A stretch of 8,862 nt of DNA, from positions 1-8,862 of IMG/VR virus record IMGVR_UViG_2537562091_000008, one strand, 5' to 3'. Below the pieces are notes generated by a model. The model saw only the letters and a program-made list of their open reading frames with translations, searched no databases and had not been told where the DNA came from. Origin of the DNA: a virus (lineage: Duplodnaviria; Heunggongvirae; Uroviricota; Caudoviricetes). Both the position numbers and the translations under genes were made by a program. Shown piece by piece: positions 1,009 to 8,862 of the stretch (position 1 is its first letter; each line of letters starts with the position of its first letter).

Positions 1009-1083
1009 GTCCTCTTAGTTAAATGGATATAACGAGCCCCTCCTAAGGGCTAATTGCAGGTTCGATTCCTGCAGGGGACACCA
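1009..1083 (+). tRNA. argW: tRNA-Arg (anticodon CCU), argW
   Basis: 75-nt cloverleaf: acceptor stem GTCCTCT/AGGGGAC, anticodon stem AGCCC/GGGCT with loop CTCCTAA (anticodon CCT), T-arm GGTTCGATTCC, encoded 3' CCA at 1081-1083. Matches the argW sequence as I recall it. Confidence 0.9.
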
Positions 1084-1178
1084 TTTATCAGTTCGCTCCC
1101 ATCCGTACCAGTCCGCAAAATCCCCTGAATATCAAGCCTTCTGTAGATGCACAGTTCGTAATGGTTCGCGTCAGATCG

Positions 1179-1244
1179 TTGACAGCCGCACTCCATGACG
1201 GGTAAAAAGTGGATAAAATAATTTTACCCACCGGATTTTTACCC
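1179..1244 (+). promoter_or_regulatory. Candidate integrase promoter/operator: consensus -35 TTGACA (1179-1184) plus three copies of an 8-bp motif immediately upstream of the int start
   Basis: TTGACA at 1179-1184; possible -10 TAAAAA at 1203-1208 (18-nt spacer, weak). Perfect inverted repeat GGGTAAAA (1200-1207) / TTTTACCC (1222-1229) with a further direct copy TTTTACCC at 1237-1244 abutting the ATG at 1245. Confidence 0.3.
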
Positions 1245-2402
1245 ATGCTCACCGTTAAGCAGATTGAAGCAGCAAAGCCGAAAGAAAAACCATACCGCCT
1301 TCTCGATGGTAATGGCCTGTACCTTTATGTCCCTGTATCAGGGAAAAAGGTATGGCAGCTTCGCTACAAGATTGACGGTAAGGAGAAAATCCTGACCGTC
1401 GGAAAATATCCGCTTATGACTTTGCAGGAGGCAAGGGATAAAGCATGGACTGCGAGGAAAGACATCTCGGTTGGCATCGATCCGGTAAAAGCAAAAAAGG
1501 CTTCGTCTAACAACAATTCCTTTAGCGCCATTTACAAGGAATGGTACGAGCACAAGAAGCAAGTCTGGTCTGTAGGTTATGCTACTGAACTTGCCAGAAT
1601 GTTTGATGACGACATTTTACCTATCATCGGCGGCCTTGAAATTCAAGATATTGAGCCGATGCAACTGCTGGAAGTAATCCGCAGATTTGAAGAGCGCGGG
1701 GCAATGGAGAGAGCCAATAAAGCCCGCAGAAGATGCGGAGAGGTTTTCCGTTACGCTATTGTCACCGGCAGGGCTAAATATAACCCAGCACCTGACCTTG
1801 CTGACGCCATGAAGGGATACCGCAAGAAGAACTTCCCGTTTCTTCCTGCAGACCAGATCACGGCATTTAACAAAGCACTGGCAACATTTTCAGGAAGTAT
1901 CGTATCGCTCATTGCCACCAAGGTTTTACGCTACACAGCCCTAAGAACGAAAGAGCTTCGTTCCATGCTATGGAAGAACGTCGATTTTGAAAACAGGATT
2001 ATCACCATCGACGCCAGTGTGATGAAGGGCCGCAAGATTCATGTAGTGCCGATGTCAGACCAGGTGGTTGAACTTCTCACTACGCTAAGCTCAATCACCA
2101 AACCAGTATCAGAGTTTGTTTTTGCCGGGCGCAACGATAAGAAGAAGCCAATCTGCGAGAACGCGGTACTGCTTGTGATTAAACAAATCGGCTATGAAGG
2201 TCTGGAAAGCGGTCACGGATTCAGGCATGAATTCAGCACGATTATGAACGAGCACGAATGGCCTGCCGACGCCATTGAAGTGCAACTGGCACATGCCAAC
2301 GGCGGATCTGTGCGTGGGATTTACAACCATGCACAGTATCTCGATAAGCGCAGAGAAATGATGCAGTGGTGGGCAGATTGGATTGATGAAAAGGTGGAGT
2401 AA
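1245..2402 (+). CDS. intS: Prophage tyrosine integrase (CPS-53/KpLE1 IntS-like, P4-family)
   Basis: 385-aa product starting MLTVKQIEAAKPKEKPYRLLDGNGLYLYV, recognised as E. coli IntS. Tyrosine-recombinase catalytic region present (HGFRHEF ... RGIYNHAQY). Lies about 160 bp downstream of argW in the same orientation, as at the K-12 argW-intS locus. The six-frame ORF extends to a GTG at 1209 (12 extra residues); the ATG at 1245 is preferred on homology but has no obvious Shine-Dalgarno. Confidence 0.9.
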   Translation: MLTVKQIEAAKPKEKPYRLLDGNGLYLYVPVSGKKVWQLRYKIDGKEKILTVGKYPLMTLQEARDKAWTARKDISVGIDPVKAKKASSNNNSFSAIYKEWYEHKKQVWSVGYATELARMFDDDILPIIGGLEIQDIEPMQLLEVIRRFEERGAMERANKARRRCGEVFRYAIVTGRAKYNPAPDLADAMKGYRKKNFPFLPADQITAFNKALATFSGSIVSLIATKVLRYTALRTKELRSMLWKNVDFENRIITIDASVMKGRKIHVVPMSDQVVELLTTLSSITKPVSEFVFAGRNDKKKPICENAVLLVIKQIGYEGLESGHGFRHEFSTIMNEHEWPADAIEVQLAHANGGSVRGIYNHAQYLDKRREMMQWWADWIDEKVE

Positions 2403-2411
2403 TGCCACCCA

Positions 2412-2729
2412 TCACACCACCACGCCATCCTGCAGCGCGCTGTTGATGAAGTACGTAACACGCCCCATCACCTCCACCTCTTCCGCCGCCTCCACTTCGA
2501 TCGCTTCACCATCATCCGTGATTAATGCCCTTCCCATCACTCTGGCAAATTGCGTTCTGCCGCCGGACAAAATCAGCAGAACCTGATTCTGAACCAGCCT
2601 GGTGCACGGCTGGGACGGAAGTCGCTGTCGTTCTCAAAATCGGTGGAGTTGCATGACAAAGTCATCGGGCATTATCTGAACATAAAACACTATCAGTAAG
2701 TTGGAGTCATTACCGACAATGCGCAGGAA
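2412..2729 (-). pseudogene. Decayed coding remnant convergent with intS (one in-frame TGA, no credible start codon)
   Basis: Minus-strand frame reads [31 protein letters not shown]-[TGA at 2634-2636][73 protein letters not shown], ending at TGA 2412-2414, only 10 bp from the intS stop. Protein-like composition, but interrupted and in a different frame from the ORF fragment upstream of it. Confidence 0.2.
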
Positions 2730-2899
2730 TCACGAAACTCGTTCAGATCAGGCTTATTACCATCGACTTTAACGGCAGTATTTGGCTTAAAATAAAAACC
2801 AGCGCCCCACCCGTTACCGCGCACTTCAATAATGGCAATGCTGTTAATTCATTTAACCTCTCCACCGTCAAATTTGAAAGCACCGCTTTCTGTTTTCAT
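2693..2899 (-). pseudogene. Small ORF interrupted by an in-frame TGA, translationally coupled to the upstream 61-aa ORF
   Basis: ATG at 2899-2897 lies 1 nt after the TAA of the 61-aa ORF and is preceded by GGAG (spacer about 10 nt). Reads MKTESGAFKFDGGEVK-[TGA 2849-2851][51 protein letters not shown], stop TGA at 2693-2695. Missed by the ORF track because of the internal stop. Confidence 0.3.
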
Positions 2900-2900
2900 T

Positions 2901-3086
2901 TTAATCATTCTCCGTAACAGGTTCATTGTGAGCAGCATTTAGTACTCGCTGGAGTGGCTGGTCATTTTCGCGATCTAATTCAGCCTGTAATGTATTCATT
3001 GAAGAATTAAAAGCAGGAACTTCATGACCGCTAAGATTTACGCGAAGCATAAACTGCATGATATTTTGAATAGTTTGCTTATCCAT
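2901..3086 (-). CDS. Hypothetical small acidic protein (61 aa) immediately downstream of the tailspike gene
   Basis: ORF MDKQTIQNIMQFMLRVNLSGHEVPAFNSSMNTLQAELDRENDQPLQRVLNAAHNEPVTEND. Good Shine-Dalgarno (AGGA, 7-nt spacer) before the ATG at 3086-3084. Starts 12 nt after the tailspike stop, consistent with co-transcription. No family recognised. Confidence 0.5.
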   Translation of the reverse strand: MDKQTIQNIMQFMLRVNLSGHEVPAFNSSMNTLQAELDRENDQPLQRVLNAAHNEPVTEND

Positions 3087-3098
3087 TTTATTGTCCTG

Positions 3099-4535
3099 TT
3101 AAGTTAAACCAATTAATCCATGCCCGGTTGAAGCATGTAAGTCCTGAATTAATGCTGCAACCACCTTTGCTAAATCTTCGTGAGTTATTGTTCCAGAGTT
3201 AAATGCTGCTCGGGATACGGTGCCGGTTGGCGATCCCCATCCCGTCCTCCTCTCTGAAATAACTTGATTGCCATTAAGTCGTATTCTTAAGTTGTTGAAG
3301 TTAGCCCAGTTTTCAGCCCTGTTGAAACTCAAATGTGTTGTATTTGCCGGGCCCGTTCCTACCGTAATTCGTTGATTGTCGCCCATCAAAATTGCGCAGT
3401 TGTTTGAAAATCCAGCTTCAGAAAATGAAATTCCACTCCTAAAATAATTTGTTCTAAATCTAATGCCGTTTGCAGCTCTAGATGATAGAGATCCCTCAAG
3501 TCTGATGTATTCGCCATTACCTACCTCGGTTAGTTCCTCTGTTGGAGTGGAAATAGAATTACCTCTAAACAACATTCCTGTCCAGATATAACCATTTGGA
3601 GCTTCACTCCCTCTTCCGATGGTAATCATCTGTGTTACTGGATTGCTTTTATCCTGAGTTACACATACCAACCCTCTTACAGATCCTTGCAGTGTATTCT
3701 CCATCCATCCTTTATCGGGACCTCGATTATTCAGATTAAATTCATGTGCAATAGTGCTAATCGCTCCATTCTGCACTGCATCTCCTAATACGGCACCATA
3801 TGACCACCCCCCCCATGTTTCGGCTTGCGGATTTCTTGATTCTCCACGCATGTGGTGACCAATTGAATGCCCATTCCCGCCCTCATGCTTAGCAACACTT
3901 GTAGTTGTGCATGTATATGCACTTCCTGACACCTTGCGCAAAGAGTTATAAATTACCCCCTGATCCCATCGTTTGATGCCGTCATCCCTAGTTGCAGAAC
4001 TAATTTTTTCCAGCCAAATAATGGGATCTGGAATTGGTGTTTCTGGTATGGAGAATCTCTGTCGTGTAGCATTTTTATATATGATAGTTTCATTGTTATA
4101 AATATTGTCACCAGCTGCATCTGAACCAGTCCATCCTGAGCCAGCATAAAAATTATTAAGTCCATCACCAGACTGTCCAGTCAAAACTACTCTTAACTGA
4201 TCCGGGTCATACTTCAGCACATTCGGAAAATAGAACTGATGCGCACCGTACGCATCATAAACAGCCATAGAATGGCCTTGCACGGTAACGAACTTGGCAA
4301 TCTGTCCGTTATATACCGGATATCCAGCAGCGTTAATGATGATTGGTTGAGAAACAGGAATGTGAGAACCGTCTTCGTTCTCTACATAAACCTGAATCTG
4401 GTTTTCAGGGTTTACCGGGTCAGTGTCAATTTTACCGATATAAATTTTGCCATTGGCTACGGCTTTAAAAGAACGAGCCATAGTGAAGAGTTGCGAAGGC
4501 ATGCTTACCACAACATTTGCGGTGATATCTGACAT
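3099..4535 (-). CDS. Phage tailspike protein: P22 gp9-like head-binding N-terminal domain fused to a divergent receptor-binding domain
   Basis: N-terminal ~115 aa ([97 protein letters not shown]...NVLKYDPDQ) align closely with the P22 tailspike head-binding domain as I recall it; the remaining ~360 aa are unrelated to the P22 endorhamnosidase body. Start set at ATG 4535-4533 (GGAG 7 nt upstream) rather than the upstream ATG at 4583. Visibly AT-rich relative to neighbours. Confidence 0.85.
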
Positions 4536-4656
4536 TTCATTGCTCCAGACGAATGATATGATGCAACCATGATGTGATTGCATACCGAAATGGTACTATT
4601 GAGTATTTATCCAGTAGGTTACGATGCCATTCCACCCAACTGGTGAGGCATCAAGG
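4536..4656. promoter_or_regulatory. Divergent control region between the tailspike and mnt genes, with a candidate operator (inverted repeat ATGCAA-N11-TTGCAT, 4561-4583)
   Basis: 121-bp gap between divergent start codons. Inverted repeat read directly. A plausible plus-strand promoter for mnt (-35 TTGCAT 4578-4583, 17-nt spacer, -10 GAGTAT 4601-4606) overlaps the repeat. Contains a TAGGT motif (4614-4618) that resembles part of the P22 mnt operator half-site as I recall it. Confidence 0.3.
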
Positions 4657-4923
4657 ATGTACAGCAAATACGACGAGGCGCAGTTTCACTTGAGACTTCC
4701 GCATGAACTCCACGCGAAAATTAAGCAGCGTGCGAAGATGAATAACAGGTCGCTGAACTCAGAGATAATTGCAGCGATTGAAGAATCATTGGCTAAACAA
4801 AGCTCTGCATCTGTTTACATTGACGATGCAGAGCGTATGGCAGAACAACAATCTGAGATGGTTAAGAAAATTGTCTTTGATACGCTTAAGACCATGTATA
4901 GCAATAATAAAAAGGAAACATAG
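4657..4923 (+). CDS. mnt: Mnt-like ribbon-helix-helix transcriptional repressor (P22 immI-type)
   Basis: 88-aa product MYSKYDEAQFHLRLPHELHAKIKQRAKMNNRSLNSEIIAAIEESLAKQSSASVYIDDAERMAEQQSEMVKKIVFDTLKTMYSNNKKET, closely parallel to P22 Mnt as recalled (FNFRMPMEVREKLKFRAEANGRSMNSELLQIVQDALSK ... NDAERLADEQSELVKKMVFDTLK). Alternative upstream ATG at 4624 would add 11 residues. Confidence 0.8.
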   Translation: MYSKYDEAQFHLRLPHELHAKIKQRAKMNNRSLNSEIIAAIEESLAKQSSASVYIDDAERMAEQQSEMVKKIVFDTLKTMYSNNKKET

Positions 4924-4993
4924 AAATCTAGTTTCCGGCTAAAATGGCATTGCCTTCATGATATCCTGTGAAAAACTAAGGAGAGTTAACCAT

Positions 4994-5479
4994 ATGAAAA
5001 AATCACTGTTAATTATCCCGCTTCTGCTGGTTGGATGCGCAAAAGTAAGTGACTATCAAGCAAGTTGCGAACAACGCTATCAAAAGCTTAGCGATATGGC
5101 TAATTGCCTTGATGCCAGTGTGAAGAACGACTCACGCATGGCATCAGCACCAACACCTAAGCTGTATGTCCTTGCTGCAAAGATGCTCGGGCAAGGTGTC
5201 GATGAAGGCAAGATAAGTGACGCACAGGCAAGACTTGAGCTTCAGAATCTTTATGTTCAATTACAAAGCCAAGAACAAGCCCAACAAATAGCACAAAGCC
5301 AAGCATTCCAGCAGGCTTTATTGAATTATCAGGCTGTAAACACAATGCAAGCGATCGAGCAAAAAGCGCGCCAGCCTGTTATAACTCAACCTTACCCAAC
5401 ACGCGTTGACACTTACACAAACTGCAATTCAGGGTTTGGAAATACAGTCACATGCAACAGTAGCAGTAACATCAGATAA
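4994..5479 (+). CDS. Prophage-encoded lipoprotein (candidate superinfection-exclusion / lysogenic-conversion protein)
   Basis: ATG at 4994 preceded by AAGGAG (4978-4983). N-terminus MKKSLLIIPLLLVGC is a type II signal peptide with lipobox LVGC; the residue after Cys is Ala. Mature part has a Cys-rich N-terminal segment, a Gln-rich predicted helical segment (QNLYVQLQSQEQAQQIAQSQAFQQALLNYQAVNTMQAIEQKARQ) and a C-terminal Cys pair. Same strand as and 70 bp downstream of mnt. Confidence 0.65.
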   Translation: MKKSLLIIPLLLVGCAKVSDYQASCEQRYQKLSDMANCLDASVKNDSRMASAPTPKLYVLAAKMLGQGVDEGKISDAQARLELQNLYVQLQSQEQAQQIAQSQAFQQALLNYQAVNTMQAIEQKARQPVITQPYPTRVDTYTNCNSGFGNTVTCNSSSNIR

Positions 5480-5569
5480 CAATCAGCAAAGGTATCGCCT
5501 ATGCAGAGGAATACGATAAACCTCGCGTTCTACATATTTGGTTTTTGCACGTTCCTGGTGTTTGAAAGG

Positions 5570-7567
5570 CTATTCTGACAACGAATCAGACTTAGCACCC
5601 TGCGTCAGTGCATTAATCGCTTTTTGCGCTTGCTGCATGGCTTTCTCAAACGCTGTCGATCCGCGTGGTGTGTTTGCCATTCGGAGCATTGCATTTCTGA
5701 ATGGTTCGCTCTCATAGGCGCGAGTAAGAAGTCCGTAGCTTACCGCTGCGCCAGTTGTCGCCGGGTTCATTGCTGTCCCATACCCGATAATGAACGGGAT
5801 GGTTTGCTGCCCTGTTGGTGTTGTTACTGCCGCTTTTGCAGCCTGCTGCGTGGATTGCAGGTAGTTTTTCAATCCTTTCAGATAAGCAGCGTCCTGCCCC
5901 TTAAATGTGATGCCAGTCTGGTTTTGCAGGATGTTAAGCTGTCGAAGGAACTGATCAGGGGAACCCCCTGATTTCTCCATCGCCTTTCCAATGATGCCAT
6001 TGCGCATTTGCGCCCTGCCAACACGACCAACTGAGTTATACAGCGTCTTAATTTCCGATTTGTTCTTGCTGAATAGCATGTTGTTGACAACTTCCGGCGT
6101 CAGATCGCCTTTCATGAGAACATTCTTCAGCCTGGTATTCTTTAGTTTCGCCGCTTCGTCAGCGTAGACGGCATTGGCCTGCTGATATTTACGGAGAGTA
6201 TCGTTGCCAAGATTCTGACCAATGGCACCATTGATATCGTCTGTCATCGCCTTGTAAACGCGCTGAATGGCAGCATCGGAACGGTTTGGTAACACTGGTC
6301 GTTCCCCCTTCACGTCCATTCTGAACTGGCTGCGCAGATCGCTTAATTGCTTCAAATCCAGATTTACCGGACCATCAGGACTAGCATTGCGAACAAGCTC
6401 ATCACGATAGGACTGAAGTTTTGAAATAGTCTCGTTATCAGCAACCTTACCAAGCTTCTGCAGGTTAGATATTTCTGTATCAATCTGCTGAATTGCTCGC
6501 GCAGGCTGAATGTTTACTCCAGCCATAGCATTCTGAACCTGCTCCAGTCGATTACCGGCGGCACGACGAATTCCTGATGTTTTCGCTTTAAGGCTGTCAA
6601 TAACAACCGCTGGATCATACTCGCCGAATTTATCAGCAAATCTCTGCACCAACTGACTTCTCGCTTCCTGTTGCGTTGCTCTCATTCCGCTTGTGCCAGC
6701 CAGGGGAATATTTTCTGCTGTAGTCTGCGCCATTTTCCCGACGCGGGAAGTAGGCTGTAACAGGTCTGTGGTGTGCAGAGGCACTCCTTCACGCTCTGCA
6801 AATCTGATAGCTTGCTGCGCTTCTGGTGCAATAGCACCACGAACGCCACGATAAGCAGCGCCTAATCCACGTCCGGCAGCGTTAATAGCGCCGCCAGCCA
6901 GAACGCCAACGCCTAAATCGGTGGCGAGTGCTTCCGCATCATCTTTCGCACTATTTGCAGCAAGTGATCCAACTGCGTTTTCTGCTAGAAGGCGAGTTGC
7001 CCCCTGAGCAATTCGACCAGCAAGTGTTGGTGCCTGTGTTGCCGCTCTCTCAACGCCAGCAGGAGTGAGGTAAGGCAATGCTTCAGCAAATACCCTTCCC
7101 TCTGTCGTTTGTGGAGTCAGCGCGCCTTGCTGAAGGCCAAAGTCCTGCTCTAATCCCTGCGTTGTTACTCGTGGTGCTGGTTGATATGTACCATCGCCAA
7201 TGCCGAGTTTACCGCCAGCCCAAGCCGCCGCGCTTGTTACAGCATCAGCAACTGATGCAGGTATATTTGCCACGTTCACGCCAGCCTGCACCAGTCCGCG
7301 ACCAGTCTCTTTTACTGCTTCGCCAAGATCAGACATAAATCCACTTTGCTGTGGTTGTTGCTGTGCTACTGGTTGCTGTGTCTCCACTGGCTGTACAGAT
7401 GGCAATGGATAGGCAGCATAGAAAGCTTGCTTAGCCTGCTCTGCATTTTCTCCGGCTTGCGGGGCCACGACTTCATTGAAGTATTGCTCCTGAGCTTGCG
7501 CTTTTTGTTCTGGTGCTAACGCCTGATACTGTGGAGAGGCGATAACATCTTTCCATGCTTTAGCCAT
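5570..7567 (-). CDS. Phage ejection (internal virion / DNA-transfer) protein, P22 gp16-like by position
   Basis: 665-aa ORF, the last gene of the late operon before the immunity/tailspike region, which is where gene 16 sits in P22-like genomes. Start ATG overlaps the upstream gene's stop (TAATG at 7565-7569). Long Ala/Gly/Gln-rich low-complexity segments. Assignment is by synteny and composition, not by recalled sequence identity. Confidence 0.55.
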   Translation of the reverse strand: MAKAWKDVIASPQYQALAPEQKAQAQEQYFNEVVAPQAGENAEQAKQAFYAAYPLPSVQPVETQQPVAQQQPQQSGFMSDLGEAVKETGRGLVQAGVNVANIPASVADAVTSAAAWAGGKLGIGDGTYQPAPRVTTQGLEQDFGLQQGALTPQTTEGRVFAEALPYLTPAGVERAATQAPTLAGRIAQGATRLLAENAVGSLAANSAKDDAEALATDLGVGVLAGGAINAAGRGLGAAYRGVRGAIAPEAQQAIRFAEREGVPLHTTDLLQPTSRVGKMAQTTAENIPLAGTSGMRATQQEARSQLVQRFADKFGEYDPAVVIDSLKAKTSGIRRAAGNRLEQVQNAMAGVNIQPARAIQQIDTEISNLQKLGKVADNETISKLQSYRDELVRNASPDGPVNLDLKQLSDLRSQFRMDVKGERPVLPNRSDAAIQRVYKAMTDDINGAIGQNLGNDTLRKYQQANAVYADEAAKLKNTRLKNVLMKGDLTPEVVNNMLFSKNKSEIKTLYNSVGRVGRAQMRNGIIGKAMEKSGGSPDQFLRQLNILQNQTGITFKGQDAAYLKGLKNYLQSTQQAAKAAVTTPTGQQTIPFIIGYGTAMNPATTGAAVSYGLLTRAYESEPFRNAMLRMANTPRGSTAFEKAMQQAQKAINALTQGAKSDSLSE

Positions 7568-8862
7568 TAATCACCCCATAGTGAAGAAAAATTACTGCCA
7601 GTAGTAGGTTGTTGCGCTGGCGTATTCTGTACTGGCTCCTGATAATCAAACTGTTTTTTAACAGTGCTCAACTTGCTTTCAAGCTGATTTCTAATCTTTC
7701 CGATAGAGTCACGAAAAGCCTTTTCACTCATTTTGGGGCTTAGGGCACCAACCGCATCGGATAATTTTTTACCCTCAGCATCTGAAAGAGCACCCATACC
7801 CTTCAGGGACTGCACCATAGGAAGGAATGTTTGAGCTTTAAAGGTGTCGAGCCTTGCTTCAAAGTTAGCCGCATCAGAGCCAGGAACTGTCGGAAACGCT
7901 GAGCGAATTCCTACTGCTTTTGAAAGGCCGGGGCTTTGCTCTATCTCGTTGAGAGAATCAAGCGCGGTGCTGAACGTATCAACTGCACCCTGAGCTGCGG
8001 CCTGCCTGTCAGCGCGGGCTATGTCAGCCTTTTGCCGAACATCTGCCTGTTTCTGTTTTAGCTCTTCAAGCTTTAACTGATTGCTTTCTCTGGCTATCTG
8101 TCTGTCCAGAGCCTTTTCTTGTAACTCTGCTCTTTGTATTTCTCGGGAAAGAGCAGCATTCTGTGCGCTGATGTTCTGTCCACGTATCTGGATGTCCTGA
8201 CCTCGAGCTGTTAGTGCTTCACCTGCCTGATTGCTGCGGATTGTCTCTGCCAGCCTGCCTCTGTCAATTTCACGACCAGCCATCTTGTCCTGAACATTGA
8301 AGTAATCAATCGGACCAAGCGCAGCCATCCCAAGGTGATCAACAAACTCACCAAATCCTGAAGGATTCTGCTGATACATCTGAGCAACGTTGTTAGGGTC
8401 AACAGCGACGCGCGCCAGTTCCTTGGCGTTATTTTGCAGCCACGATTGCATTGCTTCTGGAGATGAGGCCGCAAGGCGTGCGCCAGCCGCTAAGGTGCCG
8501 ATAGAATTACGCTGGTCTTCATCAATGAATCCCATGCCTTTACGAACGGATTCAATCTGGTCTGGATATTGAGTAGCCAACTGACGCAAAGCACCGCGAT
8601 CACCAGACGCATAAGCATTAGCGTACGCCTGCTGGAATTCTTTCTTCCGCTGAGCCTGCTTCTCCTGCTGAAACACCCCCGCAATACCTGAAAGGCCTTG
8701 CAAAGCAGTCAGCCCAACATTGTTAGCGCCTGAACGCTCAATATCATTGTTCTGCCTGATAAGCTGAAGCGTGTTGCCGATGTCATTTACGCTCGGAGCG
8801 TTTGAGTTGACACCACCGATACCAGCCAACAATCCGCCATTTGTTCCTTGCCAAGTAGCCAT
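7567..8862 (-). CDS. Phage ejection protein, P22 gp20-like by position (start coincides with window edge; may be 5'-truncated)
   Basis: 431-aa ORF beginning MATWQGTNGG exactly at the window boundary, immediately upstream of and coupled to the gp16-like gene. Contains a charged predicted coiled-coil segment (AQNAALSREIQRAELQEKALDRQIARESNQLKLEELKQKQADVRQKADIARADRQ). Confidence 0.5.
   Translation of the reverse strand: MATWQGTNGGLLAGIGGVNSNAPSVNDIGNTLQLIRQNNDIERSGANNVGLTALQGLSGIAGVFQQEKQAQRKKEFQQAYANAYASGDRGALRQLATQYPDQIESVRKGMGFIDEDQRNSIGTLAAGARLAASSPEAMQSWLQNNAKELARVAVDPNNVAQMYQQNPSGFGEFVDHLGMAALGPIDYFNVQDKMAGREIDRGRLAETIRSNQAGEALTARGQDIQIRGQNISAQNAALSREIQRAELQEKALDRQIARESNQLKLEELKQKQADVRQKADIARADRQAAAQGAVDTFSTALDSLNEIEQSPGLSKAVGIRSAFPTVPGSDAANFEARLDTFKAQTFLPMVQSLKGMGALSDAEGKKLSDAVGALSPKMSEKAFRDSIGKIRNQLESKLSTVKKQFDYQEPVQNTPAQQPTTGSNFSSLWGD

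Follow-up and report, generated by a model that had tools for sequence, protein, structure and literature searches.

Probable IntS arm-type sites overlapping the intS promoter in the attL junction of a P22/Sf6/HK620-like prophage at argW

The short repeats located immediately upstream of the integrase gene in this argW prophage are, with a probability of roughly 93%, four IntS arm-type sites (P'1–P'4, consensus GGGTAAA) in the attL P' arm, serving both as part of the intasome scaffold and in autorepression of the intS promoter, PintS. The window, meaning the whole stretch of 8,862 nucleotides analyzed here, covers attL, the left-hand junction of a P22/Sf6/HK620-like prophage integrated at argW. 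The copies, the protein that binds them, and their regulatory role are already known, having been published for an identical sequence in Escherichia coli K-12. An earlier note on this DNA had proposed an arm-type site cluster or operator controlling int at attL, and this proposal agrees with the K-12 sites P'1–P'4 over PintS, with the ~5-fold autorepression observed there, and with the comparative tests described below.

Layout of the attL Junction

The junction contains the following features (window coordinates, strand in parentheses):

1–933: yfdC.
1009–1083 (+): argW, the tRNA-Arg(CCU) gene and integration target, found with ARAGORN and annotated as tRNA-Arg/argW in K-12 and other E. coli.
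1069–1084 (+): attL core CTGCAGGGGACACCAT, the IntS core-type site at the argW 3' end, found at 1069–1083/84.
1091–1095 (GTTCG) and 1111–1115 (GTCCG) (+): pentameric sites I1 and I2 for TorI, the RDF/excisionase; positions 2464409–2464436 of PMC2951348 equal window 1087–1114.
1154–1158 (GTTCG), 1164–1168 (GTTCG), and 1174–1178 (GATCG) (+): TorI sites I3, I4, and I5; positions 2464472–2464499 of PMC2951348 equal window 1150–1177.
1179–1184 (+): PintS -35, TTGACA, read from the sequence, named -35 in PMC2951348, and invariant in 18 homologous upstream regions.
1200–1207 (+): arm-type site P'1, an exact match to GGGTAAAA, holding the -10 TAAAAA (1203–1208); its GGGTAAA is invariant in 18 sequences.
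1211–1218 (+): arm-type site P'2, GGATAAAA, a degenerate one-mismatch match spanning the transcription starts; its numbering as P'2 is putative.
1214–1215 (+): intS transcription starts T and A, from K-12 primer extension with converted coordinates.
1222–1229 (-): arm-type site P'3, an exact match (read as TTTTACCC on the + strand) within the stretch encoding the 5' UTR; mean column identity 0.96 in 18 sequences.
1237–1244 (-): arm-type site P'4, an exact match (TTTTACCC on the + strand) touching the ATG; mean column identity 0.97 in 18 sequences.
1245–2402 (+): intS, a 385-aa heterobivalent tyrosine integrase by its Pfam domains, annotated as intS in E. coli genomes.

The gap between argW and the intS ATG is 161 nt. 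Identity between the HK620 attP and the window starts at the core, which the HK620 record labels "attP core"; CTGCAGGGGACACCAT is also the 16-nt duplicated core given for KplE1 (PMC2951348), and its sequence is unrelated to that of the arm motif. All five TorI pentamers are present at the positions mapped from the paper; they form two blocks, downstream of the core and upstream of the -35, which is adjoined by I4 and I5. GTTCG repeats are kept in other species. This junction is carried by ~1,890 of 5,426 complete E. coli genomes.

Repeat Copies Upstream of intS

Three exact copies of the 8-bp motif precede intS, as the earlier note had reported, at 1200–1207 (+), 1222–1229 (-), and 1237–1244 (-). 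The perfect inverted repeat described there is formed by the first two around a 14-nt spacer (1208–1221), and the perfect TTGACA upstream of the copies is found at 1179–1184. Other details of that description required amendment. The third copy is indeed a direct repeat, but rather than stopping one base short of the ATG it ends at 1244 and touches the ATG at 1245 with zero gap; the inventory had left out the degenerate copy GGATAAAA (1211–1218, +); and while the -35 had been recognized, the -10 box that copy 1 contains was overlooked, as were the five TorI sites immediately 5' of the -35. The GGATAAAA copy and the 1222–1229 copy together form an 11-nt near-palindrome (1209–1219/1221–1231), and the direct repeat extends to 9 nt (TTTTACCCA at 1222–1230 and 1237–1245). 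The four sites are spaced by 11, 11, and 15 bp and their orientation is mixed.

Window-wide, GGGTAAAA occurs four times against an expectation of 0.15, and at least four copies were found in none of 200 shuffles. When the 161-nt intergenic stretch (1084–1244) was shuffled 5000 times, just 0.06% of the shuffled sequences held any 8-mer at least three times. The clustering is far above chance. It is true that the motif includes a -10-like TAAAA and that promoter regions are A/T-rich, which might produce a fortuitous cluster of promoter-like words, but both sets of shuffles, as well as the retention of the sites across genera while the spacers vary, make this explanation exceedingly improbable.

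Two further matches lie outside the junction. A stray exact GGGTAAAA at 7767–7774 (-), within an ejection-protein gene and with no partner copies, is probably a chance occurrence. The same probably applies to AGGTAAAA at 1615–1622 (-), within intS, the equivalent of which is labeled an attP repeat in the HK620 record.

Identity to KplE1 and the Published PintS Data

Window positions 1171–1260 are 100% identical to E. coli K-12 KplE1 (CPS-53) and to phages HK620 and Sf6. KplE1 attL/PintS shares the argW core, the five TorI pentamers, the -35 and -10 boxes, the four P' sites, and the intS start; the two sequences differ at a few positions between the core and I4. The P' arm of the HK620 and Sf6 attP (records of Clark et al. 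2001 and Casjens et al. 2004) is likewise identical to the window; the HK620 record annotates the equivalents of 1199–1220 and 1220–1245 as attP repeats and that of 1179–1228 as a promoter.

Panis et al. (PLoS Genet 2010; PMC2951348) assigned PintS to the boxes TTGACA (-35) and TAaAAa (-10) and, by primer extension in K-12, mapped two intS starts at 2464536/7. Their numbering of -223 to +64 equals 2464344–2464630, so the ATG is at 2464567 and the converted starts fall at window 1214 (T) and 1215 (A), matching the bases reported. The same paper describes four IntS arm-type sites, P'1–P'4, all of which contain TAAA and the first of which overlaps the -10 box, as well as five TorI sites with GTTCG, GATCG, or GTCCG cores. 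The names P'1 to P'4 appear in its plasmid table, and from these four P' sites we inferred the exact site boundaries and the P'2–P'4 numbering and coordinates used here.

In that study, a PintS-gfp fusion was repressed ~5-fold by IntS and ~5-fold by TorI, the latter acting via I4/I5 beside the -35, and autorepression by IntS in K-12 was seen by gfp fusion, RT-qPCR, and primer extension (PMC2951348). Mutation of the P'1 TAAA abolished promoter activity, P'1 not being genetically separable from the -10 box, and IntS repression remained in single P'2, P'3, or P'4 mutants (PMC2951348). Because of these two results, the site of autorepression is assigned by position. Binding of IntS to the K-12 attL arm sites is credited by this paper (PMC2951348) to Panis et al. 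2007 JBC.

A spacer of 18 nt separates the -35 from the -10, and the latter, TAAAAA, is without the usual final T. Since intS reads away from argW, its promoter elements lie within attL; the activity data for them are from K-12 only. A consensus promoter scan picks ATGACG-16-AATAAT (1195–1222) and misses the mapped PintS, owing to the missing T of the -10. The -35/-10 pair in the 1991 Sf6 record (X59553) equals window 1195–1200/1217–1222, the same pair as that picked by the scan. We rejected ATGACG/AATAAT as the main promoter, as the K-12 primer-extension data do not fit it; however, based on the absent final T, the choice of the scan, and the Sf6 annotation, there may be a minor second promoter at this position.

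Integrase Domains, Start Codon, and Leader

The IntS protein contains an N-terminal PF13356 Arm-DNA-bind_3 domain (residues 2–86; E 2e-25), a central Phage_int_M domain, and a catalytic tyrosine-recombinase domain, Phage_integrase (E 7e-39). RefSeq (under the name intS), HK620, and Sf6 records all annotate a 385-aa integrase product.

The start codon is the ATG at 1245, because the GTG at 1209 precedes the mapped transcription start and lacks conservation. The earlier note had raised this GTG as the possible true start, which would place two of the copies in coding sequence. On such a reading, two or three of the copies would be coding and the repeat would reflect a peptide repeat or codon usage. 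The reading frame of the ATG does remain open back to GTG 1209. However, the starts mapped in K-12 are downstream of this codon, and its equivalents in other species read ACG, GCG, or a TTG-shifted sequence while ATG-CTx-ACx is invariant. Moreover, with translation from the ATG, the Pfam arm-domain profile matches from residue 2 onward, and the three sets of annotation agree on 385 aa. Initiation at the GTG is therefore highly implausible, and that suggestion of the earlier note fails.

A function of the inverted repeat in RNA, as a 5'-UTR hairpin affecting translation or stability, is suggested by the 30-nt leader, which contains the sites at 1222–1229 and 1237–1244 along with a weak Shine-Dalgarno GGA (1233–1235). 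However, transcription starts within the left arm of the palindrome, and folding of the leader with early coding sequence yielded no structure beyond shuffled controls (-3.4 kcal/mol, z = +0.91; 169 of 200 shuffles gave a fold of equal or greater stability). In addition, the motif change in a sister lineage of integrases (discussed below) is identical on the transcribed side and on the non-transcribed P arm. We accord this possibility almost no weight.

Conservation Across argW Integrases

IntS homologues were gathered from phage records and from a single genome of each species; a tRNA-Arg(CCU) gene lies ~160 nt upstream of nearly all of them. A comparative footprint was built from 18 distinct aligned upstream regions, with integrases about 67–99% identical, from genera including Citrobacter, Pantoea, Edwardsiella, Erwinia, Serratia, Tatumella, and Rouxiella as well as from Klebsiella phages. 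Column identity in these 18 regions is 0.93–1.0 for the sites versus 0.51–0.82 for the spacers: among argW integrases of the Enterobacterales, all four sites are retained as the spacers diverge. No variation was seen in the -35 or in the GGGTAAA of site 1, and mean identity for sites 2, 3, and 4 is 0.93–0.97. The copies are thus kept in diverged int upstream regions; the earlier note had proposed that their loss from otherwise near-identical regions would count against a binding function, and the opposite was found.

Homologues from Edwardsiella, Pantoea, Erwinia, Serratia, and Tatumella have a perfect GGGTAAA(A) at site 2. On this comparison, the GGATAAA of E. coli represents a weak form of what is a real fourth site.

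Natural three-site variants occur in Escherichia whittamii (locus L035, ~1470–1500) and Xenorhabdus (loci L020 and L023), in which the 15-bp unit between the TTTTACCCA repeats is absent. This is consistent with a deletion via slippage or recombination between these direct repeats. In E. whittamii, only the first ~159 int residues matched, suggesting that int is truncated.

The most divergent E. coli match, from strain MLI104K2 (L088), has the core and TorI-like sites, a scrambled -35 and site 1, intact sites 2–4, and no intact intS annotated. This junction appears to be a decayed remnant and, being degenerate and without an intact intS, was set aside as a comparison sequence.

A Sister Lineage with GGGCATA Sites

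The arm motif is present on both attP arms, with four copies in the P' arm (the window) and two in the P arm of HK620, where two direct GGGTAAAA copies occur 12 bp apart (L001, 522–541). These two lie directly 5' of the core in the phage; in the prophage, they would belong to the attR side, beyond the window.

A sister lineage of argW integrases, 58–73% identical, uses the same tRNA with the same site geometry. It includes Kluyvera, some Pantoea, Izhakiella, Xenorhabdus budapestensis, Salmonella phage g341c, and Erwinia phage phiEt88 (loci L018, L026–L029, L033, and L060, ~100 nt upstream of int; L086 and L087, each at 445–463 and 650–700). In this lineage GGGCATA/TATGCCC replaces GGGTAAA/TTTACCC at most of the corresponding positions in the P and P' arms, although the third P' copy is degenerate or absent in several members. 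The switched first site of this lineage still provides a usable -10, CATATT. In the P arm of g341c and phiEt88, two direct GGGCATA copies are found 12 bp apart in the same place as the HK620 pair. The integrases themselves carry lineage-specific substitutions in the arm-binding domain (e.g. VWQLRY to VWRLRY). Thus site sequence co-varies with integrase lineage at constant tRNA and geometry. A repeat that changes on both attP arms together with the integrase lineage is expected for an arm-type site, unlike a host-factor site or the operator of an unrelated repressor.

In four loci of the GGGCATA lineage (L027–L029 and L060), (A)CGAACC is the sequence repeated 5' of the -35. The TorI core GTTCG appears there as its reverse complement, suggesting either an inverted orientation of the RDF sites or a different RDF motif.

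These data also bear on whether the repeats might instead be the operator of another prophage or host regulator, such as a CI-, Mnt-, or Arc-type repressor or an excisionase. The inverted repeat with its near-palindromic center (1209–1219/1221–1231) resembles the operator of a dimeric repressor, and the prophage encodes a Mnt/Arc protein (4624–4923). Nevertheless, HK620 carries two direct copies of this 8-mer beyond the attP core, the motif switches to GGGCATA on both arms along with the integrase lineage, KplE1, which has no repressor, still shows IntS-dependent repression, and the TorI sites have another motif, GTTCG. The mixed orientation and spacings of 11, 11, and 15 bp are typical of arm sites and unlike a simple dimer operator. 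We consider such an operator very unlikely.

From the GGGTAAA/GGGCATA split we propose, at even odds, that the P4-type integrases of argW comprise at least two arm-site specificity classes, with the same core, geometry, and -10 overlap, distinguished by arm-domain substitutions and insulating competing argW phages. The split may be new to the literature, as we found no discussion of it in the papers that we examined.

Proposed Function and Comparison to Known Systems

Given the sequence identity, we infer that this prophage would act like KplE1 of K-12, including autorepression by IntS. In the arm-site model, the IntS N-terminal domain would bind P'1–P'4 in the P' arm of attL, and these sites, together with the two P-arm GGGTAAAA copies at attR, the core, the TorI sites, and host bending proteins, would scaffold the intasome for integration and excision. 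P'3 and P'4, with P1/P2 at attR, may serve mainly in intasome assembly. The same DNA would hold a sigma-70 promoter (TTGACA, 18 nt, TAAAAA; start at 1214/1215) inside attL, with intS reading away from the tRNA. As P'1 covers the -10 and P'2 the start site, IntS bound there is predicted to occlude RNA polymerase, lowering expression of its own gene ~5-fold; occlusion is deduced from the position of the sites. TorI at I4/I5 beside the -35 would repress intS to a similar degree. With integrase held low and constant, excision would be governed by the supply of RDF.

This arrangement can be compared to that of phage lambda, whose Int is a heterobivalent tyrosine integrase with an N-terminal domain that binds short arm repeats (P1, P2, and P'1–P'3) apart from the core sites for intasome assembly. 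Lambda int is transcribed from PI/PL, and we know of no autoregulation of lambda int through arm sites. The lambda arm sites differ from the argW sites in sequence, number, and orientation, and the N-terminal domain here is a P4-type Arm-DNA-bind_3, unlike that of lambda Int.

Another parallel is provided by satellite phage P4, the integrase of which represses its own promoter near the transcription start, with the RDF Vis also lowering Int (PMC2951348). P4 Int autoregulation thus resembles IntS autorepression in both promoter-start binding and the lowering of integrase by an RDF; however, Vis is proposed to act on mRNA, while TorI binds DNA beside the -35 (PMC2951348).

Remainder of the Prophage and Significance

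Small ORFs lie downstream of int, and the region from 2403 to 8862 is P22/Sf6-like. Its assigned features are:

3099–4583 (-): 494-aa P22-type tailspike with a P22 head-binding domain.
4624–4923 (+): Mnt/Arc repressor.
4958–5479 (+): ORF with no function assigned.
5570–7567 and 7567–8862 (-): DNA-ejection proteins.

Based on the tailspike, Mnt, and ejection proteins, this prophage is apparently a fuller P22/Sf6-like element than KplE1, which is a 10-kb remnant. O-antigen-modification genes, present after int in Sf6 and K-12, were not found after int within the window (to 8862). The window ends inside the prophage, among the ejection-protein genes, and attR and the torI/hkaC RDF would lie beyond it.

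The junction is of practical value for correct annotation (an ATG start and a promoter inside attL), since about 1,890 of the 5,426 complete E. coli genomes have exactly this junction. If the two specificity classes proposed above are real, competing argW phages would be insulated from each other in both intasome assembly and autoregulation, and the classes would be a naturally occurring pair with which to map the Arm-DNA-bind_3 recognition code. More generally, the attL P' arm would be a textbook-style case of one DNA element acting as both recombination scaffold and transcriptional operator, which would account for the low, constant level of integrase in argW prophages and leave excision under the control of the excisionase.
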